From a virus (Duplodnaviria > Heunggongvirae > Uroviricota > Caudoviricetes): a DNA stretch of 42,247 nucleotides. Both the position numbers and the translations under genes were made by a program. The stretch lies in IMG/VR virus record IMGVR_UViG_3300001528_000017, positions 64,001 to 106,247 of that record; one strand, 5' to 3'. A model generated the notes under the pieces. It worked only from the letters and a program-made list of their open reading frames with translations. It was not told the DNA's origin and searched no databases. Position 1 is the first letter of the stretch. Every line of letters starts with the position of its first letter. Positions 3,274-38,985 of the stretch are shown piece by piece.

Positions 3274-3284
3274 CATAGGATTAT

Positions 3285-3323
3285 GTAATGGGAGGGGAAC
3301 TCTCCCTTCCCATTACTTTCTTT
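3285..3323 (+). terminator. Intrinsic terminator after the MCP
   Basis: 14-bp stem GTAATGGGAGGGGA (3285-3298) / TCCCTTCCCATTAC (3303-3316) with one G-U, loop ACTC, then TTTCTTT. Confidence 0.85.
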
Positions 3324-3344
3324 AACTTTTAACGGAGAAGTAAA

Positions 3345-4355: not shown

Positions 4356-4359
4356 AGTT

Positions 4360-5589: not shown

Positions 5590-5603
5590 CTAAAATAAAG
5601 GCT

Positions 5604-6557: not shown

Positions 6558-6578
6558 TCAACCTAACAGATAACCATT

Positions 6579-7292: not shown

Positions 7293-7320
7293 CATATTGT
7301 TTAACTAAACATTTACAACA

Positions 7321-8607: not shown

Positions 8608-9189
8608 ATGATACACTTTAACGAATTAAGAATTACTTCAGATGGGCAACATCTTATCATAGATGTAAGTGTCCTAAGTGAGAGTTACTACAAGAATGTC
8701 TATATAGACAGCATTGTCATTGACAATCAAGATACCTATGTAGGTAGTGGTCCTAGTAGTAACCCTGTGTATCAATACTCTGTCCCTGATGTAATGTCTA
8801 AGCTCACAAAGAAATATGTCAGCTCTAAGCATGTGAGACTTGACCTTACTCCTACTGACCTTCCCCTTAATGGTTTACTATTTGTCTATGTTAGGACAAA
8901 GGGTACTCCAGCAGCAGATACTCCATGTGGTCTTGACAACATGACTACACTAGGAACTGTTACAAATATGTACCCATTCTATCAACAGGCAATGAACCAC
9001 ATTGGAGAGTTAGCTAACAATTGTTCTGTATCACAAAACTTCACTGATTATATCCTAAAGATGAAGGGATTAGAGCTTGCAGTGAGAACAGGAAACTACA
9101 CTGATGCCATCAAGTTCTATAACAAGTTCTTCAATGGAAAGGAGAATACAGTGGTAAGAAAAGGAGGGTGTAGCTGTGGAAATACTTAA
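8608..9189 (+). CDS. Tail hub protein A (crAss001 gp38-like)
   Basis: MIHFNELRIT...LIIDVSV...DSIVIDNQDT, KGTPAADTPCG, ELAVRTGNY and a C-terminal CSCG. Confidence 0.8.
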   Translation: MIHFNELRITSDGQHLIIDVSVLSESYYKNVYIDSIVIDNQDTYVGSGPSSNPVYQYSVPDVMSKLTKKYVSSKHVRLDLTPTDLPLNGLLFVYVRTKGTPAADTPCGLDNMTTLGTVTNMYPFYQQAMNHIGELANNCSVSQNFTDYILKMKGLELAVRTGNYTDAIKFYNKFFNGKENTVVRKGGCSCGNT

Positions 9190-15919: not shown

Positions 15920-15923
15920 CCTT

Positions 15924-15965
15924 AAGGGGACATAAGGATTCTACTTATGTCCCTTTATTATTTTA
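15924..15965 (+). terminator. Intrinsic terminator after the muzzle gene
   Basis: GGGACATAAG (15927-15936) / CTTATGTCCC (15944-15953) plus flanking pairs, followed by TTTATTATTTT. Confidence 0.8.
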
Positions 15966-15973
15966 CATATTCT

Positions 15974-16007
15974 CTTGTGCAAGTGAGAATTTATTCTTAC
16001 CTTTGCA
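15974..16007 (+). promoter_or_regulatory. Bacteroidetes primary-sigma promoter P3 for the cargo operon
   Basis: TACCTTTG at 15998-16005; CTTG at 15974-15977; 20-nt spacer; directly after a terminator. Confidence 0.85.
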
Positions 16008-16026
16008 CTATAAAACCGTAAATAAT

Positions 16027-18402: not shown

Positions 18403-18403
18403 T

Positions 18404-20251: not shown

Positions 20252-20255
20252 TAAT

Positions 20256-23200: not shown

Positions 23201-26200
23201 GCAGGCTAAGGCAGTACTATCAGAGCAGAATGATGAACTAGATGACCTTCCAGAGGGTGCTCCTGTAGTAAGAGAAATTACTCCTGAGGAGGCACAAGGT
23301 AAGGAAACTGGTCATGATGCTACTGAACATACTCCTACTGAGAATGAAAGACAGAAAGCAGAGGCTGCACAAAGAGCTGCACAAGCCCTTAGTGCTGAGG
23401 AGCAGGCTAAGGTCAATGACTTATTCCAAGACTTAAAGGAGGGTATGCCACAAGAGAATGTGGAAGCATTTGATAAGGCAGTCTCTGAGGTCTTGAAGAG
23501 TATTGATATGCTGATTGATGCTAAGGCAACTAACCAAGAGATAGGAAAGCTTGTTAAGAACACTCAGTCCTATCAAATAGCAAAGCAGTTAGCTCCTGAG
23601 CTGGATGATTACCTCAATGTGTATGTAACCTCTAGGCTTAACCCTAAAGCAGCAGAACCTGCAAAGCAAGAGGAAGAGCCTAAGATAGCTACACCTGTGA
23701 TTACTGACCAAGAAGTAAGACAGCAGACTACTGCACAAAGGACTATTGACCCTAATCAGGGAGAGTTCACAGGAACCTATCAGTATTGGAAGCCTACTAC
23801 ATCCTACTTACCTTTTGGTAGAGCTTATGTAAAGGGGGACAATACACCATTCTATAAGATTGCAAGGACTCTAAAGAACCAAGATGGTACACCTGTATAT
23901 TCAGAACCTACATTAAGAAGGATTGAAGCTGTAGGAAAGCATCTAGAGGAACATGTGGCATTCAAGCTTGTAGATAGTGGTGCAGTAAAGGTAGGCAGCA
24001 ATGTACACTTTACTATTGATAGTACTCTCAATGACCAAGCAGGAGAACTAGTAATCCTTATGACTGATGACCAAGGAAGAGTTATTGGTGATGTAATGTC
24101 AGCCAGTGACCCAAGGTTTGCAAATCAGTTAGGTCTTCCACAGCTGGTGGAAAGGATTACTACTGAATATGAGGAGGCAGGCTCACCACAACACTTTACT
24201 TCTAAGGAAGTTACCACAGTGGATAAGAACATGGTGGGTAAAATACCTTACCTAGCTGACCACGAGGTAATGCACACTCTGAATGAAGTGTTTGTAGATG
24301 GAGAACAGCAAGTACCATTTAAGATTGGTGTAGCTGCTAATAGTGGTAAGAATGCTAGAATACTAGCATCAGCTGGTAGAACCAAGAAGCAAGGACAAAG
24401 TGACTTGGAAAGGTCAATCAATCCTCCTCTTACTGCTAAAGCTGGACAACCATTCTTGCTATTACCAACAAGTAGTTCAGTAAATGCCTATATGACAGTC
24501 CCCATCATGATGGACTCATACAATCCTACTACACAAGGAACTGCACTAGGTAAAGCTATTCATAAGGTACTTGAGAGAGTCCCAACATCTGATAATGCTC
24601 ATGCAATGGGAATTATCAATGACCTTGAGGAATTACTATCAGTACAGGAGATACACATAAACTATAATGGAGATAATGTCAAAGTAACCATAAAGCCTAA
24701 TGGTGCAGAGCACCAAATGACTATTTACAATGGTGCTAAGAATGCTCCTAATATAGTAGAGCAACTTGAGCTTGGATTGCAAGGACAACCCTTCCAGGTT
24801 TCCAGGAAGTATATGAATGAGGATTATGATGGTCAAGCCTACAATAGAATGATTGGAGAAGTGGCCAAAGTAAATCTACCTATAGGTACTACTCACACAG
24901 TAAGTGATTGGTTCACTATTAAGCCAATCAATGCTGCTGGTCAAAAGATGAAAACTAAGTCACCTAGAAGTACAGGTAGTAACCCTCATGCAGCTACTCC
25001 TCAGTACATAACTATAACCAAGAAAGGAATGACACTGAATGTTAATCCTGCTACTTGGGAAGTAACTGATGGTACTGGAAAAGTTTACACAGGTCCTAAT
25101 ACTAATAAGGTTAAAGCCCAAGCCTTTGGTATGCACATGAATAAAAACATGGAGCAGCCCTATGATACAGAGTGGGGCTACTATGACCCAAAGACTGATG
25201 AGTTTGTAGAGAAACCTAACAGAGTATTAAGGACACTAGGAGAACCTCAACAAGGTACTGTAGTAAAGGGTATAACTCTTACCAATCCTCATACAAAACA
25301 ATCCTATACTATAAGGGTAGGAGAAACAAGAAGGATTGATGATGGTATGTATCCAGGGGTTTCAACTATAAAAGACATTCAAGATAATGGCACAATAGTT
25401 GATAGTTACTATGATGAGACTTCAGGAACTACTACAACTAGATTCTTGACTCAAGACCAATATCTGACAGAGCTATCTTATGCTACCCTAGTGACCAACC
25501 CAAGTACAGCTACAGAGACTTCAACTGAACTAAAGGATAAGGCTAAGAAAGCTGGACTTCTAGGTAATAAGGTTAGAGAAGCTCTGTGGGCTAGACTAAC
25601 TCCTGAGCAACAATCTATCATAGCCAATAAGAAAGGCCCAAAGCAAAAGCAGTGGATGGATGCACTAGAGACTGCATTTGACCCTGCAACCAACACATTT
25701 GATGAGGCTAAACTGAAAGGCACAGTAGATGAGTTCTTAGGAAGAAAGGGAATGTACAGGAAGACTGATGGGTCTCAAAGAGTTTGGGATAAGCAGAAGG
25801 AAACCAAGTGGCTTGCTTCAGTATTACCTAACCTTTCAACAGATGAACACTTCCAAGTAGTCAATGGACTAATCAGAGTAGCAGAAAGCTCTACACCTGA
25901 TTATGCTTATGGGCAATTCAAGAGAGGTGTAATGGTTATCAGTGACCAAGCAGCAAGAGGAACTGTTTACCATGAAGCCTTCCACGCAGTAACACATACA
26001 CTTCTAACTCCACAAGAGTACAAGGATATGTTTGATGCTGCAAAGCAGAAATGGGGAGACATTTCCAGACTAGCACTTGAAGAGAACTTAGCAGAGGACT
26101 TTAGAAGGTATGTACAACTTGAGGAGACTCCCATAGTAGGAAGCTTAGTAAAGATATACAGAACCCTGAAGCACTTAGTGCAGAATCTCTTTGGTAAAGA

Positions 26201-26762
26201 GCCTTACCTCAACAAGATGTTCTACAATATCAATAGAGGTAAGTTTGCTAACAGGATTGTAGAAAGCACCAATGTAACTAGAAATAGGGCAACTGATGTA
26301 TTTGAAATCCAAAAGCAGATAAATAAACTGAAGAGTGACTATAATAAGGCTAACACTTACAGAAACTCAGCTAGGAGTACTGACAGGTCTGTTATAGATG
26401 ACATCATTAAGGACTCAGGTCTATCAGATGTACTATTCTCTTATCAGCAAAATGGTAATGGAATGTGGTCTATCTCAAGAATCAGTAAGGCAGACTTCAA
26501 TAAGAAGATACAAGACCTACAGGATAGGTTAGTAAGAACTTATGAGAGTGAGCTATCTGAGGATGAGAAGTTATCTAGGCAGATGCTTGAGGAGCAAGAA
26601 TCATACTACAGAAGAGTAGAGCAGTATCATAGAGACCAGATGCTATTTGAGAACCTATCTCAGGAAGATAAGGACTATCTGCAAGAGAGAGGCATTACTC
26701 AAAAGGAGTTCAGTCAAATGACACAACTTGAAAAGGAAGTTCTATTCCACTGTAAATACTAA
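20256..26762 (+). CDS. Giant cargo/ejection protein 3 with a C-terminal zincin-like domain
   Basis: 2168 aa; Gly-rich hydrophobic N-terminal segments; HEAFH at 25971-25985 followed by EENLAEDF; single Cys near the C-terminus. Confidence 0.7.
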   Translation: MAEDITKIGPVGLKGLKGIGQQQQAELSDYSRAIRSMSGRGLAQTFVPDAEVPVGMQLAAAGYGDSSYDTAIQNVSQLEDIQDIRAQEQPWYAQLGAGIGKGVALAATTFLDGTVGLVTGIVEGIGAKISGDSWGDSVAKLWHNEVSDGLADLNRNLEEWLPNYRTYEELENPWYNNLGTMNFWADSVIKNLGFTVGAFYSGGAWNKALKAVGALKGAMGAKVVGSFTSALNEGRIEANQNSRDFLELQYKQIDDALNEQLSYLDESGLSNDEINAQKVLLRDRADELKEDAKERANAMGLTTLIGNTVLLSLDNFDTFGKLYARGYKNARTISKGRVTREAMSEGLEKAGREIAQEEAGKRITKEAGKYIYDPVSKKRAFARGLRHGLVEGNEEMAQAFIAEIAGNMQSPDSPDAYYEALLDPTAEIKTRDFIGSVTDGFVNTYGNGDRWEEFAVGAFTGLLGIPTFGKVQNSDVNTWLGRGRTVGISGGLFGEFGIANKENMEGQEAVDFMNNYAQRVQEQKGHFVRSQSFTDAMDGWAEADDAFEYKNAEDNSDFAAISRFAKVGRINDLRDMVNQDFENIPDEELAKIAEFTSPVDGLGGWRNMDGSLMSDTEEGRAQMREELKQKRDKILAEIDRYEDSVETLRAIGNNSLTEDQVNELAWLNWKVGTFTDRYNSIKEESQEFLTEMQRSLQAFQSGRGRGMIDEESEEGQKILKAMDNAEMFIDALRSSKTPLQLAAIMEANPHITQFIEEIGYPILEDIVGVDAATFEKSMTDLKDAIKIAKATKTFNQRYKEFRDNPIELIKNRQKIDKKKEKVNRAAEEVNLKDKVDNADVSEIVHGMESGDLDEGQLDGLFSDEDNEFLNNVGTEGQPQPSGRQKVEEAKKIIKTSQRMDGAIDGLDDGSIDPQALADAHTLLQHSKQVSESEQEMLDTVSQAYNDPTLLYDENDPSMQGVSQEELESILGERIDAAKSVIEQAKAVLSEQNDELDDLPEGAPVVREITPEEAQGKETGHDATEHTPTENERQKAEAAQRAAQALSAEEQAKVNDLFQDLKEGMPQENVEAFDKAVSEVLKSIDMLIDAKATNQEIGKLVKNTQSYQIAKQLAPELDDYLNVYVTSRLNPKAAEPAKQEEEPKIATPVITDQEVRQQTTAQRTIDPNQGEFTGTYQYWKPTTSYLPFGRAYVKGDNTPFYKIARTLKNQDGTPVYSEPTLRRIEAVGKHLEEHVAFKLVDSGAVKVGSNVHFTIDSTLNDQAGELVILMTDDQGRVIGDVMSASDPRFANQLGLPQLVERITTEYEEAGSPQHFTSKEVTTVDKNMVGKIPYLADHEVMHTLNEVFVDGEQQVPFKIGVAANSGKNARILASAGRTKKQGQSDLERSINPPLTAKAGQPFLLLPTSSSVNAYMTVPIMMDSYNPTTQGTALGKAIHKVLERVPTSDNAHAMGIINDLEELLSVQEIHINYNGDNVKVTIKPNGAEHQMTIYNGAKNAPNIVEQLELGLQGQPFQVSRKYMNEDYDGQAYNRMIGEVAKVNLPIGTTHTVSDWFTIKPINAAGQKMKTKSPRSTGSNPHAATPQYITITKKGMTLNVNPATWEVTDGTGKVYTGPNTNKVKAQAFGMHMNKNMEQPYDTEWGYYDPKTDEFVEKPNRVLRTLGEPQQGTVVKGITLTNPHTKQSYTIRVGETRRIDDGMYPGVSTIKDIQDNGTIVDSYYDETSGTTTTRFLTQDQYLTELSYATLVTNPSTATETSTELKDKAKKAGLLGNKVREALWARLTPEQQSIIANKKGPKQKQWMDALETAFDPATNTFDEAKLKGTVDEFLGRKGMYRKTDGSQRVWDKQKETKWLASVLPNLSTDEHFQVVNGLIRVAESSTPDYAYGQFKRGVMVISDQAARGTVYHEAFHAVTHTLLTPQEYKDMFDAAKQKWGDISRLALEENLAEDFRRYVQLEETPIVGSLVKIYRTLKHLVQNLFGKEPYLNKMFYNINRGKFANRIVESTNVTRNRATDVFEIQKQINKLKSDYNKANTYRNSARSTDRSVIDDIIKDSGLSDVLFSYQQNGNGMWSISRISKADFNKKIQDLQDRLVRTYESELSEDEKLSRQMLEEQESYYRRVEQYHRDQMLFENLSQEDKDYLQERGITQKEFSQMTQLEKEVLFHCKY

Positions 26763-26764
26763 GC

Positions 26765-26805
26765 AAAAAAAAAAATAGGGAAGTGCGAAACACTTCCCTA
26801 TTTTT
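26765..26805. terminator. Bidirectional intrinsic terminator between convergent giant genes
   Basis: Perfect 15-bp stem AAAAATAGGGAAGTG (26771-26785) / CACTTCCCTATTTTT (26791-26805), loop CGAAA; A11 on the left (U11 for the - strand), T5 on the right. Confidence 0.92.
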
Positions 26806-26807
26806 GT

Positions 26808-29800
26808 TTAATATGGTCTTGCATAATAACCAATGCTATTATCCAAGTCTCCAATGAACTTATCAATCTGTCTATATTGTGCAACTCCTGGGATAGGTGC
26901 CTTGAGTATATTCTTCTCAAGAGTACTCATTCCCTTGTAAGGACCTGACTGAATTTCATCAACCCAGTCTGTTGGGTCAATAGCACTATTGATTAGGTTG
27001 AAACTATTCTGTACCACAGTAGTAGCAGGAATAGGACTCTTAACAGTCTTAAGTAACTCCTGAGGCATGATAGTAGAAGGTGCAAGACCTCCTAATTCAT
27101 GTGCTAACCTCTTACTGCTATACTCAGCTAATTTCAAAGCCCAAGGTCTCTTCTTATCATCAGGCCACTCTATCCAGTTGGCAAGTGCCCATACTGCAAA
27201 GAATTGAACCATTTCAGTAATAGCTCTCTTAATGTTAGCTCTTTCCTCAGTAGTCATGTTGTCCCATTGTTCTGATAGTTGTACACCACCTCTTATCCAT
27301 TGGTTCAACATCCTACCAACTGTCCTATAATAACCTTCCTCCCATGAATCAGTAGCAAGATTACCTTGAGCAGCTTGGAACCTTCTGTTATACTGAATCT
27401 TCATCCACTTTCTATATTGCTGTAGAAGCCTTCCCATAGCAACTCTGTTAGCTGCATTAGCATCATCATCATTATAGATACCAAAGCAAGTTTGGTTAAT
27501 GTGAGCTACCTTTCTAGAGAACTTAGCAACATCAAATGGATTGCCTTCCAAGTCAGTAATATCCTTATAGTTGAGCTGTTTGATAGTAGAACTACCATTT
27601 ACACCTTCAACCTGAAGAGCATCCCATAGAGACATTTCCTTGCCATCAAGTAATACCTTCTGCCTCATAGCCATTGCAATAGCTGTCCTACCATATAGCC
27701 AATGGTCTCCAGCATCCTGACCCAAGAAAGCTATCTCAGCACCAAACAACCTCTGTAGCCAATTCTTCTTTTGGTTCTTAATCTTACTACCAAAGTTTTG
27801 CTTTACATCAAACAACTCGAAGAACAAGGAGAGTTTGTTTGTCTTTGTCCTATTGCCTAATTCAGCCATCATAGGACCTAGAGCCTTAGCATAAGCAGCA
27901 TCAGCTTTAGCAAGCTCTTTAGGACCAAAGAATTGTCCAGCAGCAGCCTCAATGTTCTGCATACCTAAACCAGTAGCAACATTGGCTAAGTTAGCTAGCC
28001 AGTTGAAGCCTAGCTGTGCCAATGAAGACCCCTTCAGGATAACACTAGCAAGCTTGTTGACACTTACCTTCTTACCAAGTACATCAAATGTTACCTCATC
28101 CTTGAGGTACTTACCATACACCTGACTCTCAAAGAAGTCATTTAGCTTGTCCTCAATGTTAGACCTAGAAGTAAATATCTTGTTGGCAACATCTACATCC
28201 AGAGCATTGAACTTCTCAATAAGCGGATTACCTCCTCTTGTCTTTCTCACCTTTCTTTCCTCAGTGACAAGTGCTCTTCCCACTTCAAGAGGGTCTATGA
28301 TATTGTCCATTTGCTCATATTGGTTAGCCATATAAGCATAAGACATAAGACTACCTACAACATCATCAGTAAGCTCATCAGGGTTCTGTAATCTGTTGGT
28401 GAATAGTACTGGGAGAGTCATGAACTCATTACCTGCAAAGTCAGTAAGTCCCTTCTCTGCTCTAGCATTACCAAAGATTTGGTCATCATCCTCCTTCTCA
28501 AATATAGAGGAAGTAATAGACTCCTTAATATTTTGGAAGATAGTGGTAGGAGAAGTCATACTTTCCCATAGTCTTTGACTACCAGCCTTTCTCATCTGAA
28601 TTGCCTTATTCCTTGCGACTCTTGTCTTAGGTAGCTTGGCATCAAACTTATCCTTTAGTGCTAGGAACTCACTCAGAATGGTCTTCTGATTATCTGTGAG
28701 CCTGTCATAAGCCCTATTCCTATACATAGCAGGATTAGGTTGAGGAGTACCAAACATAGAAATTGCATGGGTCTTTAACCAATCATTCCTTTCTACCATC
28801 TTTAGTACAGCTTCCTCTCCAGTAGGATTCCTACCATACTTCTCTTCTAGACCAGCTTCAAACTCTCTCAGGTCTTTCTCAAACTGAGCAAAGTTCACTT
28901 CACTGATATAGTTACCACTCTTATGACCTTCATCGTCTCTTTCAAACATCCAATCAAAGTCAGTGATGCCCATTCCCTCAGCTTTCTCTCTGAACTTCTG
29001 TATCTCCCTAATATCATCTAGGGTTTGCAGTCTTGCAGTATCCTTAGCCTTCTTAACAGCAGCATCAAACAATTGAAGTAGCATATCAGCAGAATCTGCC
29101 ATACTATCCAGCCATCTGTCCATGAGACTAATGTCACTCTGAGCCTCAGATAACAAGGACTCAACAGACATCTTTGTACCTGCATACTTACCAAAGGGAA
29201 CTACTATCTCTTCACCCATGAAAGGCTTTAGGAACTCTGCAAAGGCAGGCATAGCCATCCTAGTGTATCTTCCTGCAAGCTGATTAGATAAGTTATTAAG
29301 TCCCTTGAGTACCTCTTGTATGTTCACAAGCTCTCCATTGAGTTCAAACTCTTGTAGGAACATGTTGTCATCCTCTGACTCATCTTCAATGATAGCATCA
29401 TTCAATGCTTTTATGAAACTACCATAGGATTGAGTGTACATTCTTACACTCCTTAGGAAACCAAACTTCTGCTTAGGAGTCATACTATCCGCCATTTGGA
29501 ATTGAGCTTCCAAATTCCTTAGTTCTCCTAGAGCATGTTTAGCATAGTGGAATAGTCCTTCCACGGTGTCTGCATCTTCAGCAGTATATTGAAGAATAGT
29601 ATTGACTAAAGTCTCAGCAGCTCCTTTCTTTCTGCTAGCCTTGGTTATCTTATATCTCTTTGTTTCTGTCTTAGCAGCATTTCTGAGTATCTCAATGTTT
29701 CTGTCAATCCTATCACTAAGGGCATTGAACTGAGCCTCTCTTTGAGAAGCTTTGATGTCCTTCTGTGTAATCTGCCTAGTACCATTAAGAATATCCTCAG

Positions 29801-30776
29801 CTAGAGAACTCATAAGAGTATCTACATTGTCAATAGCTGCCTGAACATCATCTACCTTATACCCTTGGAACTTCTTGACAATCCAATCAATCATCCTCTT
29901 GAATAGAGAAGGTACAGGTGTCTTGGCATTCTCTGCATCGCTTGACAAATTTTTTTGTAATATGTGACCAACAGCCTCCTCAGCCACTAGTTCCATATCA
30001 CCATTGTAGAAATTCACAGTGTCCTCATAGTCGTCCCCTAGTATCTCTTGGATTGAGCCATCATGGTCTAGAAGAGCATTTATAGCCCTTTGAACTAAAG
30101 GCTCATTTCTGAAGGTACCCACAATAAGGTGGGCAAACTCTTCTGTGAGGTGTGTAGCACCTTCCATATTGTTGGCTACCTTTATCATAGAAACAAAGCC
30201 ATTAGCAATGTCTCTAGCTACACTAAAGTCAGTAAGTCCTACTCTACCAGCATTGACTTCAGCCTGACTAAGTGACCCTACAGTAATACCTAAAGGTTGG
30301 AATATACTAGCTAACCTATCATTAAGCTTTTGAGTAGAGTATTGTTCCTTAAACCTCTCAACAGCTTCAGGAGTCTTGGGCTGAACAAGTACACTTATCT
30401 TGCCATCACCTACATACTCTACAGTAGCAACAAAGTCATCCCTTTGAGAATTAGTAGTATTGAACTGATAGGCACTCTCTAACAGATTACCATAGTTCTC
30501 TCTTGTATCCTCAGTAGGACTATAAGCCTTATTAAGACCTTCTGCTATCCGCCTACTACCTATAAACTCTTTCATGAAGCTATTGTTCATCAGAGATTCA
30601 AAAGTAGGGACACCCTCAGCATCTAAACTGAGGGTTCCCTTATAGTCTCTTATGAACTCAGGATTGATTGCTCTAAGAAAGATTCCTCTGGCAGTTTGAT
30701 AGCCAAATTGTTTCTTTAACTCCCTAAACAAGTTTTTACCCTTACTAGGGACATAAGTGCAATAATTCTTTGCCAT
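26808..30776 (-). CDS. Large virion protein encoded downstream of the RNAP, with a degenerate zincin-like motif
   Basis: 1322 aa, mostly helical; TEEFAH at 30129-30146 and LVAEEAVG downstream; 7-nt gap from the RNAP gene. Confidence 0.65.
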   Translation of the reverse strand: MAKNYCTYVPSKGKNLFRELKKQFGYQTARGIFLRAINPEFIRDYKGTLSLDAEGVPTFESLMNNSFMKEFIGSRRIAEGLNKAYSPTEDTRENYGNLLESAYQFNTTNSQRDDFVATVEYVGDGKISVLVQPKTPEAVERFKEQYSTQKLNDRLASIFQPLGITVGSLSQAEVNAGRVGLTDFSVARDIANGFVSMIKVANNMEGATHLTEEFAHLIVGTFRNEPLVQRAINALLDHDGSIQEILGDDYEDTVNFYNGDMELVAEEAVGHILQKNLSSDAENAKTPVPSLFKRMIDWIVKKFQGYKVDDVQAAIDNVDTLMSSLAEDILNGTRQITQKDIKASQREAQFNALSDRIDRNIEILRNAAKTETKRYKITKASRKKGAAETLVNTILQYTAEDADTVEGLFHYAKHALGELRNLEAQFQMADSMTPKQKFGFLRSVRMYTQSYGSFIKALNDAIIEDESEDDNMFLQEFELNGELVNIQEVLKGLNNLSNQLAGRYTRMAMPAFAEFLKPFMGEEIVVPFGKYAGTKMSVESLLSEAQSDISLMDRWLDSMADSADMLLQLFDAAVKKAKDTARLQTLDDIREIQKFREKAEGMGITDFDWMFERDDEGHKSGNYISEVNFAQFEKDLREFEAGLEEKYGRNPTGEEAVLKMVERNDWLKTHAISMFGTPQPNPAMYRNRAYDRLTDNQKTILSEFLALKDKFDAKLPKTRVARNKAIQMRKAGSQRLWESMTSPTTIFQNIKESITSSIFEKEDDDQIFGNARAEKGLTDFAGNEFMTLPVLFTNRLQNPDELTDDVVGSLMSYAYMANQYEQMDNIIDPLEVGRALVTEERKVRKTRGGNPLIEKFNALDVDVANKIFTSRSNIEDKLNDFFESQVYGKYLKDEVTFDVLGKKVSVNKLASVILKGSSLAQLGFNWLANLANVATGLGMQNIEAAAGQFFGPKELAKADAAYAKALGPMMAELGNRTKTNKLSLFFELFDVKQNFGSKIKNQKKNWLQRLFGAEIAFLGQDAGDHWLYGRTAIAMAMRQKVLLDGKEMSLWDALQVEGVNGSSTIKQLNYKDITDLEGNPFDVAKFSRKVAHINQTCFGIYNDDDANAANRVAMGRLLQQYRKWMKIQYNRRFQAAQGNLATDSWEEGYYRTVGRMLNQWIRGGVQLSEQWDNMTTEERANIKRAITEMVQFFAVWALANWIEWPDDKKRPWALKLAEYSSKRLAHELGGLAPSTIMPQELLKTVKSPIPATTVVQNSFNLINSAIDPTDWVDEIQSGPYKGMSTLEKNILKAPIPGVAQYRQIDKFIGDLDNSIGYYARPY

Positions 30777-30783
30777 ATTCTAG

Positions 30784-33700
30784 TTATTTACACATTGGTT
30801 CATTAAGTTCTGCTTCACCAAGAGCCTCTCCATAAGCCTCTTCTAGACCAGCAAGTGCATCATCCATTCCTTCAAATCCACCAAAGGCATCTTCTAGAGC
30901 CTTGAATAGTTCATTCTCAGAAACAGACCTGCTGTTGCCACTAGGATTAAGCTGTTCATTAGCCTTTACTCTTGCCTCATCAGTTTCAATACCTGCCATT
31001 TCCTGTGTAGTCATGTTGGCATTGTACTTGACACCTCTCTTACCCTTTTGAGTAGAGGTAATAGACACTGTAGGAGCATACACAGCCCTATCAGAGCCAT
31101 CAAGAGTTAAAGCATAAAGCTGACCATTATACCCTATCAGAGGATAACTCTTTGTTTGGTTCAGTCCAAGAAGATTCCTATTAAGAACTTGCTTGGAGTT
31201 GACACCTATTTGACCATCACTTGTCTCAACTACATCTGCTGTACTCTCATCTAGCTGGGGAACTAACTCCTGCCAGTGATTAGCATAGAATTGAGGAAGG
31301 AAGTTATCAAAGTAGGTTCCACTCTGCATACCAAATCTCAGCTCTCTTAATGCTCCTACAAACTCAGGGAATGAGGAGATAAAGTTACTACTGAAGAAAG
31401 TACCAAAGCTATTAGGACCAAACTTGAATCCATCCTTATAATATGAGTACATGAACAAGTCAACAGCAAGTTTTTGGGCAGCAGGGTTATCCATGTAGAG
31501 AAGCATATCAAAGTCTCTCATCAGGGTTTCCCTCATCATAGGAGTAAGCCTACCAGACCTACCCATTACAATGTTACCATCCTTAACTTGCATCTTTCTG
31601 AAGATACTCATGTTAGCTATGTCAGGATTAGCAGCAAGAACTCCTAAGTACTCCTTTGGGAAGTCATACAGATAATAGTCTCTCTTTTCATCAAAGGTAG
31701 CATTGTCATCATCACCCAACATCTTTGTTCTAGACAGGGCAAATTCAACAAGCTCACTATAGAAGCTATTGAGAGTATCATCTGAGATAATTCCTATTGG
31801 GGAGTTGTCATAGAGTTGTTCTACTAAAGCATCTGAGTAAGCAGTAGTCTGACTAAAGTATTGACCCATTACCTGACTACCCAACTCAATACCCAATGAG
31901 TAGAAAGTTTGTAGCATAGGCATCTTACTCTTGAGGAATTTCTCTCTCATCTGTTCCCTAGACATGTTAGCAGTAACATACTTGTTCTGCATAATGTCAC
32001 CAAGTCCAGTAAGAGTAAACCTCTTGGTCTTAGCCCTTCTTGCATAAAGGTCAACCTTCCTAGTTTGGTTCTTAGCACCTGCAATAGAAGTACTGATAGC
32101 ACCATTAGGAGAGTCAGCCCTTGCAATCTGAGTAAGGTCACTTAGGTCTTGAGCTATCTGAGAGATATGTACCATAAGAAGACCAGCCTGAATCTGAGAA
32201 GCTAAGTGGTCATTCAGCTCTTCCTGAGTCATTTCTGAAGTCCTGACCTCATTTATAGCATTCAAGATAAGTTCCTCACTAGTGAAGTCATGCAGCTGAA
32301 TCTTATCATCTACACCACCACCATTTTCTTTGAGCATCCTTATCATAGACCTTACATAACTACCAAGCTTTTTCAAGCCACCAGTTTCAGTGATACACCT
32401 TCTTACAAGAGGCTGTGAGAACAATAGTCCAATTTCCTCTACACTCATACCAGCTCTCAGCATAAATCCTGCTATGTTTGCAGTCTGTGTATTCTGCATA
32501 AGGTCTGCAAGTACAGGGTCCTTAACATTATCCACAGAAGCAGCTGAGAAGTTAGCACAGTTCTTTGATATTCTATCACCATTAGGAGACATTATATCAT
32601 GTAGGGATTGAACAGTCCTACCATTGATTGTAAACACATAGTCATCTTTGATAGCCAAGCCAGTTACTTGGAACTTAGCCTGCATGGTAGTATTGTTAGC
32701 ATACATACCAATCAGCATACTTCCAGTCATATTCTGCCTGTGGTTATAGATGAATGTATCAACAGTCAACTGACTCCTCTCAACCTTGTACTCCTTAATG
32801 AACTTGTCAAGCTCATCAAGCCTTCCTTCCTTAGATATTTCAAGGAGAAGTTGGGCTACCTCTTCAGGGTTATACTCATACTCATTCTCCCCTATTTGGT
32901 GCATAAGACCATGTTCACCCGCAAAGTTATCAATCAAAGCAGGGTCACTTATGATTGTAGCTATTCTTGCAGCAATTTTAGCCTTGTCAAAGCTACCTGG
33001 GTTATGAATCTTTTCAGCAGTATCAGGGTTAGTTAATATACCCCATGCTACATCAATTATCATATTGTTCCTTGCAGCTCTGCTCTGCTCCTGAGGAGAC
33101 TTACTCTCGTCATATTCTACCTTAGTGATTTCAGTGCCTTGGAAGAACCTCTGCTTATTGGTCTTAAACCACTTTGCAAAGGCATCCTGTACACCTTCAA
33201 CCCACTCATAGTTCTTTAGCTTGCTTTCTCTAACAAACCAATCCTTAAACTCTTCATCCTCCACATCAATCTCTTCTGCTTCCTTTGGATTCTTCTTCAG
33301 TAACTCATTGTAAGAGTTTACAAAAGCAGCCCATTGTGCAGCTTCAATCTGTGAAGTAATCTCAGGGTGTTCCTGATAGAAGGCATCCCAAGCAGCTTTA
33401 ATAGCATACTTGTCTCTTCTTCTAAACTCAGGAATCATCAAGAACATCTTATCTACGTCAAAGTCTGAACCAGCAATCTGAGTAATATCAGCAGGCAACA
33501 TAATAGATGAGCCATTCTGTTGTGGTAAGAAGCCTTTAATAATCAGAGGAGCCATTGAATACTTATCCTCAGTTGGGATTCTGTAACCAATGATTCTTCT
33601 TAATTCCATAGGCATCTTAGTAACATCAAGCTCTTGGTACTCATTACCTGCATCATCCACCTTAGTAACAGCAAATGGCTCATAGAACTGCTTGCTGTAA

Positions 33701-36700
33701 GCAGGAAGATAACACTCAATGCCTTGAATACTGCCATCCTCACCATGAAGTATGTTAAGCTCCTTTGTGAGTCCAAAGTCAGACACAAGGATACATGAAG
33801 CACCCTTTATTGACTGCTTTGTGATAGCATTCTTGAACATTGAAGTAATAAGCTCCTGTATCTTGGTAGTAGTAGATGGATTGTCAAGTGGTATATTGAA
33901 TACCTCTTGCTTCTCTCCAGTGTTGGGATTTACTATCTCAACTATCTGTAGAGCGTCCAACATATCCCTGCCATACTTAGGATTACCTTTGACTGCATCC
34001 AACATAGCCTTCTGTAAACTCCTGATGTCAGCAAACTTCCCCTTAACTTTCTCCCAGTCCTCAAGCAGGTTCTCTACTATGTTAGATTGGTACAAATCTA
34101 GTACTTGTTGCTTAGTCAGGCTTCTACCATTGACCTTAACCCTAAAGTCTGGGTCATCAGGCATGTCAGATATGATAAGGTTTCTGAACTGAGAACCAAA
34201 TACTGCCACATGGTCAAATAAGTGCTCAGGAGTAGGTTGCTGTATTACATAATCACTGTAAGGTATCTCATGTACAACCTCTGGCTTGAACTCACCATTC
34301 TGCATACTCATGCTTTCTAGTAAGTCATAGACCTCTTGTTCAGTTGGCTCTATAGCCTCAAACCTATCATTATACTCTTCCTGACTAATCATATCATGGT
34401 CAAGAAGATAGTCATTACCAGCCTTGAAAACAGAATAGTCAGAGCCTGAGGTCTTTGCAGCCTTCTCTATCTCTTTCCATTCCTTCTCATGGTTCATCTT
34501 CCATACTTGGAGCTTTGGCTCAGAGTAGCTAATGTCAATTGTGCCTTGCTTACCCACCTTCACAGCAGACTCAAACTGAATAACATCAATTTCCTTGTCT
34601 TCCATGAATCTATTGAGAGCCTTGAGCTTTGGAGACCTATTCATAGAACCAGCTACCATCTGATACATAGAAAGTAGAAGGAACTCTGAGTTCTTGTTTT
34701 GGTGTGGTACTTTAATACTTCCACCAAGACCATCAGGCTTTTCAATCTGAGTAAAGACAAATGGTTTAATAGTCTGCCATACTATGTTGAAGTCAGCCAT
34801 ATCCCATTCACCATTATCAAATCTATCCATTGCTTGCTGCATTTCAGGAGTCCAAGCTCCCATCATGTCAAGCACAGCTCTCATAGAGCTTAGGCTTCTG
34901 TAAGCTTGAGCATCAGCTACATTGATGTCCTTGAATTTGTTTAGGATATTGTCTCTATCAAAGGGTTGTATGTGTCCTAGTTGGACAGCCCTATTAAGAG
35001 ACCTCCTAATATCTTGATAGGCAGCAGATGTGATAATCTGGTCTGCCAAATATATTGTCCTTTCTAATGTTCTACCATATTGAGAATTTGTATTTAGTTT
35101 CGTTCCAGCGGCATATACTTCCTTATATCTCTTCTGAAAGTCAGTACCATCCTTGTAGTAAGCAAGGTCAGTAGTAGTCAATTGAATGATTTGGGAAGTT
35201 GCATAAGCTTGATTCCAGAAGTATTCTTCTAGGGCATTCTCAAATTGAGTCTCAGAAGTAATTGCACCATCAGTAAGAAGTGATTCCCTAAGTGCCTTAT
35301 AGCTACTCTCACTAAAGTTAGAGTTAAGGAAATTAGCAAAGTTCTGATTCATAATCTCAGTAACTGCATCATTGATAAGCTTGTTAAGCCCATCCAAGTC
35401 CTTTGCCTCTGTGAGAGCCATAGCTTCCTCAAGGAAATGACCATCGTGATAGCTATTCAGTTCAGGGAAGAAGTGGAACTTATCACCATTCTTATCAAAG
35501 TTGGCAATAGGGGTGACACCAGCCTTCTTTCTATCCTGCACAAGTCTGATTCTACTGAGTTCCTGCTTTACTACCTTATTAAATAAAGGAGTAAGTTGAC
35601 CCTTGAAGTCACCAGTGTATCTCAGGAATTTGATGAACTTAGTTACAGGAGAGTCTGAGAAGATAGGCATATTGTACCAAGCAAACTGCTTCTTAGAACC
35701 CTTGTTGTAGCCTACAGAGAAATACTCCCTTACAAAGGCTGCTTTAATCTGAAGAGGCTCCCAATTAGTGTACTCAATTCCGTCAATGTTGTTGAGTTCC
35801 TTGAGCATCATTTGGTCTCTTACATCCTCATCAGACTCAATAAGTCTAAGCCATTCACTTCTCCATTGACCATTCTTCTTGAACCAGCTATACTTTCCAA
35901 ATTGCTCCTGAAGATAAGCATCCCTTCTCTCATCACTCTTGAATATCTTGAACATAGTGTCAAGATAGTTAGGAGCAGAGTAGCTGTAGTATGTCTTATC
36001 TCCATTCCTGAAGGATTGGATATTGTCAAGCTCTGAAACCAGACCTACCTCTTGAGCTATAGTATTGTAATCATCTGAGAAAGCTTCAATCAAGTGGGCA
36101 TTTTCAGGCATTCCCTCAATACCCTCGAAGATATTCTTCATTGCATTTACTACCTTCTCTAGGTTTACTACACCATTCTCACTCTTGAGTAGATTACTGA
36201 TTACATGGGCATTAGCATTAAGACCAACCATCTTCAGGCCCTTAGCAACCTTTTCAGTAAGCTCTTCATAGTCATCCTCATCAAACTCTCTAAGTAGAGA
36301 AAGTATCTCATTGGCTAGGTTTACACCTAACTCTGCATTGGCAGTGCTAAGTTTTCTACCACCCTCATAAATACTATTCTCATCAAGGATAGTTCCTTGC
36401 TCATAGTTGTTGATTATGGATGTCTTTGTGCTATCAAGAGCTACAGCTTGGTTCATAGCATGGGTCTTCCACTTACCATCCTTCTCATCGAAGTATTGCA
36501 TCCAGTAAGGAATAAAGTCCTTCCTGAAGTCTGCATAGAAAGAGCTGATGAGACTAGGCTCTGCCTTGAGTGCATTGATAACCTGATTAGCCCAAGGATA
36601 TTTCTCTGCTACCTTTTCAAGTGCAGGGAAACTGAATGTACCATCATCATTCTTGACACTAAAGTCATTGGGGTCAATCATTCCAGAAAGCTCATTGATG

Positions 36701-38985
36701 AGGGCTGCATGAGCAAACTCCTCATTCACATATCTGATGTTACCAAGGTCATCAACCTCAGGCTCACCATTGATACCTTCTTTCTTGATACCTGACAGTA
36801 TTCTCTTAACTCCTCTAGACAAGGAAGTTCTTGGGTCAACAAATCTTACTTTGAAAGACCAACCTCCATTACCATCAGCCCTATTTCCATCCTCATCATC
36901 ATTGAACTCAGACTCATTTGTGTCTTCATCCTGTGAGGAATCAGTAATAGTACCTCCAGTAACAGTTTCTGTGGTAGCTCCAGCATTATAAGCATGTTTA
37001 TCAGTAACCACTCTCACATTCTCAGTTCCTTCAATTATGATACAAGCCTCATCAAGAAGTGCATCCCAATTGTCAAGAACCTTTTGGTATGCTTGAAGCA
37101 TATACTCACCTTGACCTTCACCATAGTCTTCATCAAGTTCCTCAGGAGTCATTTCCATATAGGATTCTATCTCCTCCCTCATTTCCTTGAAGATTTGCTG
37201 TATAGTCTTATCCTGCATGACAGCCCTTCTACCCTTAACACTATCATTAAGGAGTAGTGCTCTCTCATACAATCTAGCAAGCTCTGCTCTATCAGGTTCA
37301 TCTTTACTCATTTCAGCTGTAATAGCCTCAGCATTCTCCTGAACCCTCTCCTCTACAGCCCTATCAACAATGTTACTGAAGTTCCTAGCAAGCATTACCA
37401 CTCTATCATGCCTTTCAATAGCAGTAAAGTCTCTAGCAAGTTTTGCTACAGGATTGTTAGGGTCAACCCTAAGTACCTCTGAACCTATTTCAGGAACCTT
37501 ATATACATTCTCAGTATCTTCCTGAGTAACTACTTGTGGTGCAGGAGTGGCAGCAGCCTCTTCTACACTAAAGCTCTTAGCAACCCTCTGCTGTGGTGCA
37601 GGCTGTACTGGTGAAGTAGTTGCCCAATTCTCTTGAATAGGTCTGACTCCTTCAAGTGGAGACTGTATCTTTAGAGGAATAAGAGATTCCTGCACATTAG
37701 ACTTGAGTGCAGGTGTAAGCCACTTATAGTAGTCTTGTAGAGGCTGATTCTGAACCTCACTGTCAGACACTGTAACAACACCTCCTTCTCCAGTAACAAA
37801 AGTAGCTTCCTTACCTTGTCTAGGATATGATTGGTCAAACCAAATTAACCTAAGGTCTTGTATTCTACCCTTGAACTCAGGGAAGATAGTCTCAAGTATC
37901 TGTCTGTAAGAGTTAAGCTGGAATGTATAGTTCCTTCTGTCATTAACCTCTACACCATTGTACTTCTGGTCAATGGGGTGATTCTTGGCCTTCATATCAA
38001 AGATGTGAAGGTTTCCATCACCATCAAGGATAAGCATGTCCATTGTACCTGCAATAGTCTTGTCACCATCCTTGGTTGCAATCCTTGCAGCAATAGGGAA
38101 CTCAGCTGTGATTACTTGGTAATTACCATTGAACTCCTTATCTAAGTGAGCCTTTAGTCTCTCAAGGTCAGCTAGGATAGCCTTCTTTCTGTGTTCAGAA
38201 AGATTAGGATAGTCCTTCTGAGTTGGGTCTTCATCCCTGAGGAAGAAGTCTCTAGTAAGAGCGTCAACACTTCTACCAATAGCCTGAGTGAAAGAGTAGT
38301 CCCCTTGGATATTAGGAGCACCATACACACTTTCACCATACTGGGTAACACTATAGTCTATAGGATTACCATCTATAGCATAAGTATGACTAGCTTCATC
38401 AAAAGTGATATGCTCTCTCTGCCACCTATACCAATCTCTTACTCTGTTAAGAGCTTGCTCAAAAGACAGTTTAGGTGCTGTACTTCTTTGAACAGGGTGT
38501 CTCTTTCTCCACTCCTTTGCTTTCTTGATAGCTTCACCCTCTGCAACAGGTCTATTCTCAACCTTCTTGTCAAGACCATATTGCATGAATGCCATTTCTC
38601 TCCAAAGGATAAACCTATAAGCTTCCTCTGGAGTAACTGCAAGCTCCCTAAGTTCAGGCAGATGCTTGTACATCTTGTAGAAATGTTCCATAGGTTTGTC
38701 CTTGGGTAATCTCATAAGATAGATTTGACCATTGACATGCTCTATAGGAACTACATTAGGATTGTACTCTCTTACCTCGTAATTAGGAACTGCAAGATAA
38801 ATCTCCCAAGCTTGCTCTTTATTTGATTTTAGGATTTCGTTTAATTGGGCAGCTGTAGGATAGCTGGCAGAGTTATTCTGTGTCTGCCAAGCACTTACAA
38901 GGTTACAAGTGTAGGACTCACTCCTTCCAATTTGTCTGGCTAAGTCCTTTATCGCACCTGTAATAATGTTACACATTATCTTCAT
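30784..38985 (-). CDS. Virion-packaged DNA-dependent RNA polymerase (crAss type) with an N-terminal PD-(D/E)xK nuclease domain
   Basis: 2733 aa; catalytic AGSDFDVDKMF (DFDVD at 33451-33465), IGYRIPTEDKYSM, FQKRYKEVYAAGTKL and FSAASVDNVKDP; nuclease motifs GTMDML..IFDMK..YTFQLNSY at about 37900-38050. Confidence 0.92.
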   Translation of the reverse strand: MKIMCNIITGAIKDLARQIGRSESYTCNLVSAWQTQNNSASYPTAAQLNEILKSNKEQAWEIYLAVPNYEVREYNPNVVPIEHVNGQIYLMRLPKDKPMEHFYKMYKHLPELRELAVTPEEAYRFILWREMAFMQYGLDKKVENRPVAEGEAIKKAKEWRKRHPVQRSTAPKLSFEQALNRVRDWYRWQREHITFDEASHTYAIDGNPIDYSVTQYGESVYGAPNIQGDYSFTQAIGRSVDALTRDFFLRDEDPTQKDYPNLSEHRKKAILADLERLKAHLDKEFNGNYQVITAEFPIAARIATKDGDKTIAGTMDMLILDGDGNLHIFDMKAKNHPIDQKYNGVEVNDRRNYTFQLNSYRQILETIFPEFKGRIQDLRLIWFDQSYPRQGKEATFVTGEGGVVTVSDSEVQNQPLQDYYKWLTPALKSNVQESLIPLKIQSPLEGVRPIQENWATTSPVQPAPQQRVAKSFSVEEAAATPAPQVVTQEDTENVYKVPEIGSEVLRVDPNNPVAKLARDFTAIERHDRVVMLARNFSNIVDRAVEERVQENAEAITAEMSKDEPDRAELARLYERALLLNDSVKGRRAVMQDKTIQQIFKEMREEIESYMEMTPEELDEDYGEGQGEYMLQAYQKVLDNWDALLDEACIIIEGTENVRVVTDKHAYNAGATTETVTGGTITDSSQDEDTNESEFNDDEDGNRADGNGGWSFKVRFVDPRTSLSRGVKRILSGIKKEGINGEPEVDDLGNIRYVNEEFAHAALINELSGMIDPNDFSVKNDDGTFSFPALEKVAEKYPWANQVINALKAEPSLISSFYADFRKDFIPYWMQYFDEKDGKWKTHAMNQAVALDSTKTSIINNYEQGTILDENSIYEGGRKLSTANAELGVNLANEILSLLREFDEDDYEELTEKVAKGLKMVGLNANAHVISNLLKSENGVVNLEKVVNAMKNIFEGIEGMPENAHLIEAFSDDYNTIAQEVGLVSELDNIQSFRNGDKTYYSYSAPNYLDTMFKIFKSDERRDAYLQEQFGKYSWFKKNGQWRSEWLRLIESDEDVRDQMMLKELNNIDGIEYTNWEPLQIKAAFVREYFSVGYNKGSKKQFAWYNMPIFSDSPVTKFIKFLRYTGDFKGQLTPLFNKVVKQELSRIRLVQDRKKAGVTPIANFDKNGDKFHFFPELNSYHDGHFLEEAMALTEAKDLDGLNKLINDAVTEIMNQNFANFLNSNFSESSYKALRESLLTDGAITSETQFENALEEYFWNQAYATSQIIQLTTTDLAYYKDGTDFQKRYKEVYAAGTKLNTNSQYGRTLERTIYLADQIITSAAYQDIRRSLNRAVQLGHIQPFDRDNILNKFKDINVADAQAYRSLSSMRAVLDMMGAWTPEMQQAMDRFDNGEWDMADFNIVWQTIKPFVFTQIEKPDGLGGSIKVPHQNKNSEFLLLSMYQMVAGSMNRSPKLKALNRFMEDKEIDVIQFESAVKVGKQGTIDISYSEPKLQVWKMNHEKEWKEIEKAAKTSGSDYSVFKAGNDYLLDHDMISQEEYNDRFEAIEPTEQEVYDLLESMSMQNGEFKPEVVHEIPYSDYVIQQPTPEHLFDHVAVFGSQFRNLIISDMPDDPDFRVKVNGRSLTKQQVLDLYQSNIVENLLEDWEKVKGKFADIRSLQKAMLDAVKGNPKYGRDMLDALQIVEIVNPNTGEKQEVFNIPLDNPSTTTKIQELITSMFKNAITKQSIKGASCILVSDFGLTKELNILHGEDGSIQGIECYLPAYSKQFYEPFAVTKVDDAGNEYQELDVTKMPMELRRIIGYRIPTEDKYSMAPLIIKGFLPQQNGSSIMLPADITQIAGSDFDVDKMFLMIPEFRRRDKYAIKAAWDAFYQEHPEITSQIEAAQWAAFVNSYNELLKKNPKEAEEIDVEDEEFKDWFVRESKLKNYEWVEGVQDAFAKWFKTNKQRFFQGTEITKVEYDESKSPQEQSRAARNNMIIDVAWGILTNPDTAEKIHNPGSFDKAKIAARIATIISDPALIDNFAGEHGLMHQIGENEYEYNPEEVAQLLLEISKEGRLDELDKFIKEYKVERSQLTVDTFIYNHRQNMTGSMLIGMYANNTTMQAKFQVTGLAIKDDYVFTINGRTVQSLHDIMSPNGDRISKNCANFSAASVDNVKDPVLADLMQNTQTANIAGFMLRAGMSVEEIGLLFSQPLVRRCITETGGLKKLGSYVRSMIRMLKENGGGVDDKIQLHDFTSEELILNAINEVRTSEMTQEELNDHLASQIQAGLLMVHISQIAQDLSDLTQIARADSPNGAISTSIAGAKNQTRKVDLYARRAKTKRFTLTGLGDIMQNKYVTANMSREQMREKFLKSKMPMLQTFYSLGIELGSQVMGQYFSQTTAYSDALVEQLYDNSPIGIISDDTLNSFYSELVEFALSRTKMLGDDDNATFDEKRDYYLYDFPKEYLGVLAANPDIANMSIFRKMQVKDGNIVMGRSGRLTPMMRETLMRDFDMLLYMDNPAAQKLAVDLFMYSYYKDGFKFGPNSFGTFFSSNFISSFPEFVGALRELRFGMQSGTYFDNFLPQFYANHWQELVPQLDESTADVVETSDGQIGVNSKQVLNRNLLGLNQTKSYPLIGYNGQLYALTLDGSDRAVYAPTVSITSTQKGKRGVKYNANMTTQEMAGIETDEARVKANEQLNPSGNSRSVSENELFKALEDAFGGFEGMDDALAGLEEAYGEALGEAELNEPMCK

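Follow-up and report, generated by a model that had tools for sequence, protein, structure and literature searches.

Lone cysteines at the facing termini of three giant crassvirus cargo proteins suggest a head-to-tail link

We analyzed a 42,247-nucleotide (nt) stretch of the IMG/VR virus record IMGVR_UViG_3300001528_000017 (positions 64,001 to 106,247; hereafter the window). It represents the late region of a crAss-like phage genome of 106 kb. It encodes three giant cargo proteins: p2168, the virion RNA polymerase (RNAP, p2733) and the RNAP-associated p1322. Judged by position and homology, they correspond to gp47, gp50 and gp49 of phage crAss001. Each terminus at which one of these proteins would face the next carries a Cys near its end, the two outer ends carry none, and almost none are found elsewhere. 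The gene order matches the chain order, and the Cys pair is lost where two of the genes are fused. Such a pattern would be expected if each pair joined consecutive proteins into a linear chain. We give slightly better than even chances to the reading that the Cys pairs at the facing termini tie consecutive cargo proteins head-to-tail into one linear chain.

Terminal cysteines in the window

The single Cys of p2168 is residue 2166 of 2168 (FHCKY). The RNAP has eight, at residues 5, 27, 648, 1731, 1758, 2143, 2197 and 2732 of 2733; the first lies in the N-terminal MKIMC and the last in the C-terminal EPMCK. p1322 has two, at residues 6 and 1097. Its N-terminus (MAKNYC) follows the motif M-x(2-5)-C-[TV]-[YF]-[IV]-P-S-K-G. 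Cargo proteins 1 and 2 have no Cys. Translation of the open reading frames (ORFs) reproduced every Cys count and coordinate that the original prediction, made from the letters of the window, had given for the five cargo proteins. The coordinates are collected in Table 1.

Cys makes up 0.18% of p2168, RNAP and p1322 together, as compared with 0.93% of the other proteins of the window. By chance, a Cys within eight residues of all four named termini in one genome has a probability of about 3e-5 given the background frequency, and of about 4e-8 given that of the cargo. When all ORFs of the genome were scanned for further lone terminal cysteines, only Cys-rich small ORFs were found. Apart from these, the only other non-spurious ORF with a Cys within eight residues of an end is that of a 193-residue late protein, which ends in GGCSCGNT, a C-terminal C-x-C.

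Conservation among homologs

We collected 120 metagenomic homologs of each protein, with identities down to 53% for p1322, 42% for RNAP and 37% for p2168. The C-terminal Cys of p2168 was found one to four residues from the end in 119/120 homologs, and was usually the sole Cys of the protein. For RNAP, the N-terminal Cys (residues 2–7) was present in 110/120. Its C-terminal counterpart lay within the last eight residues in 106/120, and six more homologs carried it 9–33 residues from the end. The N-terminal Cys of p1322 (residues 4–7) was retained by 117 of the 120. The outer ends of the chain showed the opposite: 0/120 homologs had a Cys at the p2168 N-terminus, and 0/120 at the p1322 C-terminus. 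The frequency of inner Cys in the p2168 family was 0.0002, versus 0.0093 in the other proteins of the window.

The exceptions that we inspected turned out to be artefacts: gene starts placed too early or too late, fragments, gene halves broken inside the DFD motif, and TAG recoding. Homolog P0230 had apparently lost both polymerase cysteines. The contig belongs to a close relative with about 50% identity, in whose late genes TAG is a sense codon. As a result, gene callers break up the polymerase and miss its real ends, which are MHKIYC.. and ..EETPCNI. Of the neighboring proteins on this contig, one ends in ..EVLFRCMY and the other begins with MAKAC... The gene of P0281, which has no C-terminal Cys, ends 62 nt from the end of its contig. 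The split polymerases P0160-62, P0171, P0174, P0192 and cr116_1 gp051/gp049 were considered as counter-examples and rejected, since the break falls inside the catalytic DFD motif. The gap of the interrupted polymerase gene of cr116_1 contains a 215-residue ORF whose start is LAGLIDADG-like. From the sequences, the interruption at DFD resembles a homing intron within the codons of the active site, and not a real split of the protein.

A profile of the N-terminal 150 residues of p1322 was searched against 1.84 billion cluster representatives (50% clustering). It yielded 150 matches, and the domain stood at the very N-terminus in all of them. A Cys was found at residue 3–6 in 142/150, and the remaining eight sequences were truncated or wrongly started. 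None of the 103 full-length matches (0/103) had a C-terminal Cys.

We also aligned the four terminal modules of 150 residues. These alignments were built from Cys-bearing sequences, so the unfiltered homolog counts above are the real measure of conservation. The Cys was invariant in all four alignments, and in three it was among only one or two invariant columns. In the alignment of the p2168 C-terminus (A1), the last 55–60 residues formed the conserved part, and Cys148 was one of two invariant columns. Cys5 was invariant at the RNAP N-terminus (A2), while Cys2732 was the only invariant column at the RNAP C-terminus (A3). Both TGT and TGC are used at the terminal Cys positions and the distance to the end varies; selection therefore acts on the protein.

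Named phages and fused genes

The terminal Cys rule was followed in 18 named phages: 16 from three Crassvirales families, Cellulophaga phage phi17:2 and a Leptolyngbya phage. In crAss001, gp47 has one Cys (2339/2341), gp50 has three (5, 1334 and 2404 of 2412) and gp49 has one in 1349 residues (residue 5). The terminal peptides are CNS at the C-terminus of gp47, CITTNSTIEELAAK and ICGANTLYEL at the N- and C-termini of gp50, and CAIIPQVR at the N-terminus of gp49. The three proteins of phi14:2 contain exactly four Cys in 5,398 residues, all of them terminal: the last residue of g067, residues 3 and 2179 of the 2180-residue polymerase g066, and residue 3 of g065. DAC15, cr111_1 and cr116_1 showed the same terminal pattern. 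The three genes of cr111_1 and those of phi14:2 share one strand and are colinear with the proposed order of the chain.

Two of the phages lie outside Crassvirales. In phi17:2, the sole Cys of gp039 is its last residue, gp038 has two (residues 4 and 516/517), and the sole Cys of gp036 is at position 3. Leptolyngbya phage Lbo-JY46 encodes a giant protein with its sole Cys as the last residue, and the next protein has its sole Cys at position 4. Both phages were reached through the C-terminal part of p1322 and do not appear among the phage records that the RNAP query matched.

Fused genes gave the most telling test of the pairing. In Suoliviridae (cr1_1, cr4_1, cr52_1 and cr114_1), the domain order obtained by BLAST placed the gp47-like protein and the polymerase in one polypeptide of 4272–4551 residues. 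This fusion has no N-terminal Cys, and carries a Cys 2–3 residues from its C-terminus; the protein that follows has one at residue 3–6. The 4551 residues of cr1_1 gp076 include only two Cys, both away from the fused junction. In the Intestiviridae phages LMMB, crAss002, cr110_1, cr271_1, cr8_1, cr11_1 and cr3_1, it is the polymerase and the gp49-like protein that are fused, in 4070–4620 residues. Here, the upstream protein has a Cys 0–1 residues from its C-terminus, and the fusion starts with M-S-C or MANNC and has no C-terminal Cys. For crAss002 gp33 and cr110_1 g09, the start is probably annotated too early, by 32 and 14 codons, respectively; the conserved M-S-C start of all relatives corresponds to an internal Met with S-C after it.

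When the fusions were aligned, a single Cys column was fully conserved, the one that faces the protein that remains separate (7/7 and 4/4). In the fusions of both families, a Cys pair is thus present where a junction is a boundary between proteins, and both cysteines are lost where it is a peptide bond. The pairing of facing termini from p2168 to RNAP to p1322, which had been predicted from the window, is well supported by this comparative evidence, and the loss of Cys in the fusions fits it. The original prediction had called for scoring the conservation of the terminal Cys, including genomes with fused genes. This conservation proved strong in the homolog counts, the 150 representatives, the named phages and the fusions alike.

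Predicted structure of the termini

AlphaFold2 predicted the N-terminal 150 residues of RNAP with a predicted local distance difference test score (pLDDT) of 91.9, and residues 1–10 with a pLDDT of 88. Cys5 was placed in an ordered, non-helical segment ahead of the helix 10–19. The N-terminal 150 residues of p1322 gave a pLDDT of 90.2, with residues 1–4 disordered and Cys6 in a low-confidence coil, or flexible tail, ahead of the helix 14–24. To place each Cys on a short helical module, as the original prediction did, was therefore only roughly right: Cys5 and Cys6 do precede helices, while they themselves lie in a non-helical segment and a coil. A co-fold of the C-terminal 150 residues of RNAP with the N-terminal 150 residues of p1322, run with alignments, gave a score of 0.20 (mark 0.32) and bears neither way on an interface. 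A Foldseek search of the PDB with the N-terminal model of RNAP found nothing significant (best E 0.07).

A weak motif, M-x-x-x-C-x-[IY]-[IV]..L..L, is common to the initial 26 residues of RNAP and p1322 (hhalign E 0.007); it could be a shared signal or a docking element. The same comparison of the two C-terminal modules, those of p2168 and RNAP, found no relation.

The cargo block and its modules

The block lies directly after the genes of the muzzle protein, cargo 1 and cargo 2, where the RNAP-associated cargo block of crassviruses is expected. The identity of p2168 rests on this place, since the layout is the same in crAss001. p2733 has the DFDxD motif and the homology to phi14:2 gp66 by which a two-barrel RNAP is recognized: its catalytic DFDVD starts at residue 1841, and phmmer matched it to PDB 6VR4 (phi14:2 gp66) with E 5e-25. 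p1322 shares 36.6% identity with crAss001 gp49 over 98% of the query (tblastn). Searches of the PDB sequences with p2168 and p1322 found no match, and a locus search with the single p1322 sequence returned one locus only.

The RNAP of the window differs from those of crAss001 and phi14:2 in that it is larger and carries a PD-(D/E)XK nuclease-like module in its N-terminal region. In DAC15 and cr116_1, the homologous module lies near the C-terminus of the gp47-like proteins instead, and Suoliviridae gp49-like proteins show a weak similarity to it. Its presence in different members suggests that modules move between the three members of the chain. p2168 has two HExxH motifs, at residues 1336 and 1906, and some of its homologs carry ART-PolyVal (PF18760) or PF12795 domains. 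Homologs of the polymerase contain inserts of NADAR (PF08719), PF12694 or PF25176. The polyvalent proteins of phages, reportedly described by Iyer et al. in 2017, are said to be giant delivered proteins with interchangeable enzymatic modules. The variable enzymatic cargo of the p2168 and RNAP relatives would be in their style.

Cargo 1 shows a Cys pattern of its own. In crAss001 gp45, DAC15 gp080, cr111_1 gp030 and phi14:2 g069, the sole cysteines form C-x7-C or C-x8-C pairs (residues 390/398 in crAss001; 211/219 and 273/281 in DAC15). Like cargo 1 of the window, that of cr116_1 has no Cys.

Table 1. Positions of the cargo block, its cysteines and related features in the window and in other records
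Feature	Record	Position	Strand	Remarks
193-residue late protein	window	8608-9189		ends GGCSCGNT
Crassvirus muzzle protein	window	11561-15919		Pfam crAss_MUZ
Cargo protein 1, 799 aa (p799)	window	16003..18402	+	Pfam crAss_CARG1, E 2e-61; 0 Cys
Cargo protein 2, 615 aa (p615)	window	18404..20251	+	Pfam crAss_CARGO2, E 2e-102; 0 Cys
p2168, 2168-aa cargo protein, proposed first link	window	20256..26762	+	counterpart of crAss001 gp47, phi14:2 gp67
Conserved C-terminal module of p2168	window	26580..26759	+	ends ..MTQLEKEVLFHCKY; alignment A1
p2168 C-terminal Cys2166	window	26751..26753	+	TGT; 2 residues before end
p1322, 1322-aa RNAP-associated cargo protein, proposed last link	window	26808..30776	-	counterpart of crAss001 gp49, phi14:2 gp65
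First 26 residues of p1322	window	30699-30776	-	weak motif shared with RNAP
p1322 N-terminal Cys6	window	30759..30761	-	TGC; MAKNYC
p2733, virion RNA polymerase, 2733 aa, proposed middle link	window	30784..38985	-	catalytic DFDVD
RNAP C-terminal Cys2732	window	30790..30792	-	TGT; EPMCK; penultimate residue
RNAP DFDVD, from residue 1841	window	33451-33465	-	
PD-(D/E)XK nuclease-like module, RNAP N-terminal region	window	37801..38265	-	residues ~241-395; Pfam PF12705, 24 bits, cut-off 22
First 26 residues of RNAP	window	38908-38985	-	weak motif shared with p1322
RNAP N-terminal Cys5	window	38971..38973	-	TGT; MKIMC
Cargo-1-like protein with lone Cys	LMMB (L008)	4967-7552		861 aa, Cys 860
Cargo-1-like protein with lone Cys, gp30	crAss002 (L009)	5640-7313		Cys 550/557
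Cargo-1-like protein with lone Cys, g20	cr8_1 (L015)	2439-5987		Cys at residue 5
gp33, polymerase fusion	crAss002 (L009)	16335-29072		annotated start probably 32 codons too far upstream
g09, polymerase fusion	cr110_1 (L010)	16458-29711		annotated start probably 14 codons too far upstream
Interrupted polymerase gene with 215-aa ORF	cr116_1 (L014)	14365-25230		LAGLIDADG-like start
P0230 contig	L018	803-9330		TAG as sense codon in late genes

Discussion

From the pattern of the terminal cysteines, we infer a bond between docking modules at the facing ends, by disulfide or metal, together with its time of formation and its role in packaging and ordered ejection. p2168, RNAP and p1322 would form one 'virtual polyprotein'. 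The lone Cys at the C-terminus of each upstream protein would bond the lone Cys at the N-terminus of the next. The simplest bond would be a disulfide that forms once the virion is assembled or released; as the chemistry, it is somewhat less likely than the pairwise link itself. The product would be a linear chain of about 6,200 residues, with p2168 leading, RNAP in the middle and p1322 last. With the links a few residues from the ends, it would be thread-like, as exit by the tail demands, and may pass the portal and the tail as one partly unfolded strand. The head-to-tail tie would fix both stoichiometry and order. Other cysteines would be purged, as stray thiols would give branching cross-links. 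The reducing cytoplasm of the host would then open the links, and free the polymerase and its partners. In other lineages, gene fusion would do the same job and make the Cys pair dispensable.

In this full form, the terminal cysteines would be reversible couplers of one covalent thread for packaging and ordered ejection, opened in the reducing cytoplasm; gene fusion could take their place, and Crassvirales, Lightbulbvirus and at least one cyanophage would have them in common. We consider this as probable as its opposite. Mass spectrometry has placed all three proteins in the virion for two phages only, crAss001 and phi14:2. The crAss001 virion contains gp47, gp49 and gp50 with cargo 1 and cargo 2, as well as inter-subunit disulfides in the tail and portal-vertex proteins (PMC10172136). 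The phi14:2 trio was also detected in virions, and gp66 is the protein of PDB 6VR4 (Drobysheva et al., bioRxiv 10.1101/2020.03.07.982082).

Several points weigh against a disulfide-linked thread. The RNAP of the window lineage retains six internal Cys. Virion assembly takes place in a reducing cytoplasm and the gut habitat is anaerobic, so the oxidant and the time of bond formation must be assumed. A PF00085 search of the whole 106-kb genome detected no thioredoxin-fold protein; a phage-encoded oxidoreductase is therefore not supported in this genome. The cargo proteins were unresolved in the cryo-electron microscopy map of crAss001 (PMC10172136). Recombinant phi14:2 gp66 was purified with dithiothreitol and crystallized with tris(2-carboxyethyl)phosphine (bioRxiv 10.1101/2020.03.07.982082). 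The choice of hetero over homo pairing would follow from parity, gene order and the fusions only. Finally, some cargo-1-like proteins of Intestiviridae have a lone Cys at one terminus that no Cys encoded by the neighboring gene faces.

The last point would suit terminal cysteines that act singly, without pairing to a neighbor: as anchors to the portal, the capsid interior or cargo 1, in homodimers, or as a packaging signal. The weak 26-residue motif of RNAP and p1322 could be such a common signal. This explanation is unlikely, as it does not predict the equal numbers of C-terminal and N-terminal Cys, their restriction to the facing ends and absence at the two outer ends, or the fact that each of the two kinds of two-protein lineage retains just one such pair. 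A metal bridge (Zn, Fe or Cu) between the facing Cys, or one four-Cys metal site in the assembled polymerase complex without any disulfide, has a rather low probability. The three-protein lineages do have four terminal Cys, a metal bridge would tolerate the reducing cytoplasm, and a His stands next to the Cys in p2168 of the window (FHCKY). However, this His position varies among H/K/R/N/Q/E, and each terminus has one conserved residue. The fused lineages have two Cys altogether, which would not suffice for a tetrahedral site. With one conserved ligand per terminus and two Cys after fusion, a bond between two Cys fits better than a metal site, which would also leave the extreme purge of other Cys unexplained. 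A zinc-hook or zinc-knuckle junction was rejected, as it needs three or four conserved ligands, while each terminus has one Cys and no conserved nearby His or second Cys.

About as improbable as a metal bridge is a meeting of the termini in the active polymerase complex in the host, where the Cys would be contact or regulatory residues, such as a redox switch, unrelated to packaging or ejection. The proteins are indeed annotated as RNAP and RNAP-associated subunits, and RNAP Cys5 belongs to a confidently folded N-terminal domain. Yet the same rule was found in phi17:2 and the Leptolyngbya phage, neither of which the RNAP query matched, and a lone contact residue is rarely the sole invariant position amid drifting neighbors. 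All cargo is depleted of Cys, cargo 1 and 2 as well, which speaks for the virion stage instead. Acyl-shift chemistry of the intein or native-chemical-ligation type, which would splice the proteins into a peptide-bonded polyprotein, would account for a Cys on both sides of a junction, as at intein–extein boundaries. It is very improbable: the stubs measure 0–8 residues (rarely up to 33) after the C-terminal Cys and 1–6 at the N-terminus, no intein blocks are present, and the crAss001 proteins gp47, gp49 and gp50 were individually detected in virions by mass spectrometry and are reported as separate (PMC10172136). Split inteins and protein trans-splicing were likewise rejected, since their halves need tens of residues and the flanking stubs are far too short. 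A CaaX-type lipidation signal, also rejected, needs a Cys four residues from the C-terminus, whereas 0 to 8 and more residues follow the Cys here. An accident without function, by chance or inheritance, has in its favor the small number of residues involved and nothing further. We assign it a negligible probability, and it is already contradicted by the conservation data: besides the low chance of the four positions in one genome (about 4e-8 to 3e-5), the aligned Cys is invariant across 20–25% identity, three Crassvirales families, two unrelated phage groups and both codons.

Head-to-tail joining of the cargo proteins has close and distant parallels. The nearest are crAss001 gp47-gp50-gp49 (Bayfield et al. 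2023, PMC10172136) and phi14:2 gp67-gp66-gp65, which are homologous to the window proteins, lie in the same genomic place and have the same terminal Cys. The fused 'polyprotein' of Intestiviridae (p-crAssphage type, crAss002) and of Suoliviridae has the same domains in the same order in one polypeptide; a continuous chain is therefore a viable state of this module. In contrast to the fused forms, the chain of the window is split into three genes, with a Cys pair at each break that the fusions lack. The tail and portal-vertex disulfides of crAss001 (gp57 dimer, hub-ring and R1-R2) show that distinct proteins of crassvirus particles are cross-linked by cysteines. They hold together a rigid structure that stays outside the cell, whereas the proposed cargo links would join mobile, ejected proteins end to end and would have to open after entry. 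The ejection proteins of podoviruses (T7 gp14/15/16, P22 gp7/16/20, and N4 gp51/52 with the virion RNAP) are also internal and leave through the tail, partly unfolded, ahead of or with the DNA, but no covalent head-to-tail link has been described for them.

von Willebrand factor and the gel-forming mucins form end-to-end disulfide concatemers through cysteines in their terminal regions. Their polymers are homopolymers, joined head-to-head and tail-to-tail by cysteine-rich domains in the oxidizing secretory pathway. The proposed crassvirus chain, for which they are an analogy only, would join different proteins head to tail through single Cys.

Our full-text search of the literature found no description of the terminal Cys rule. 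Neither PMC10172136 nor bioRxiv 10.1101/2020.03.07.982082 mentions terminal cysteines or a covalent link between the three proteins. The crAss001 atlas (PMC10172136) mentions disulfides for tail and vertex proteins only, and the phi14:2 polymerase preprint (bioRxiv 10.1101/2020.03.07.982082) mentions no cysteine or disulfide and considers the fused forms to be probably cleaved. A 2026 paper on N4 mentions neither cysteines nor disulfides, and states that crassvirus ejection proteins still need structures. The word disulfide is absent from a review of ejection proteins. The end-to-end Cys tie suggested for crassvirus cargo would be undescribed.

Crassviruses are the most abundant phages of the human gut. 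It is an open question how they pack about 700 kDa of polymerase-associated protein and inject it through their narrow tail (PMC10172136), and structures of the ejection proteins are still needed (PMC13434306). The question can be approached in two cultured systems, crAss001 and phi14:2, and mass-spectrometry data of reduced and non-reduced crAss001 virions exist (PMC10172136). In annotation, the terminal Cys rule flags wrong start codons, introns and recoded stops in giant genes, and marks the true boundaries of the proteins. If true, a covalent and reversible head-to-tail tie would explain the fixed stoichiometry of the cargo, its order of exit, and the freedom with which its genes fuse and split in evolution.

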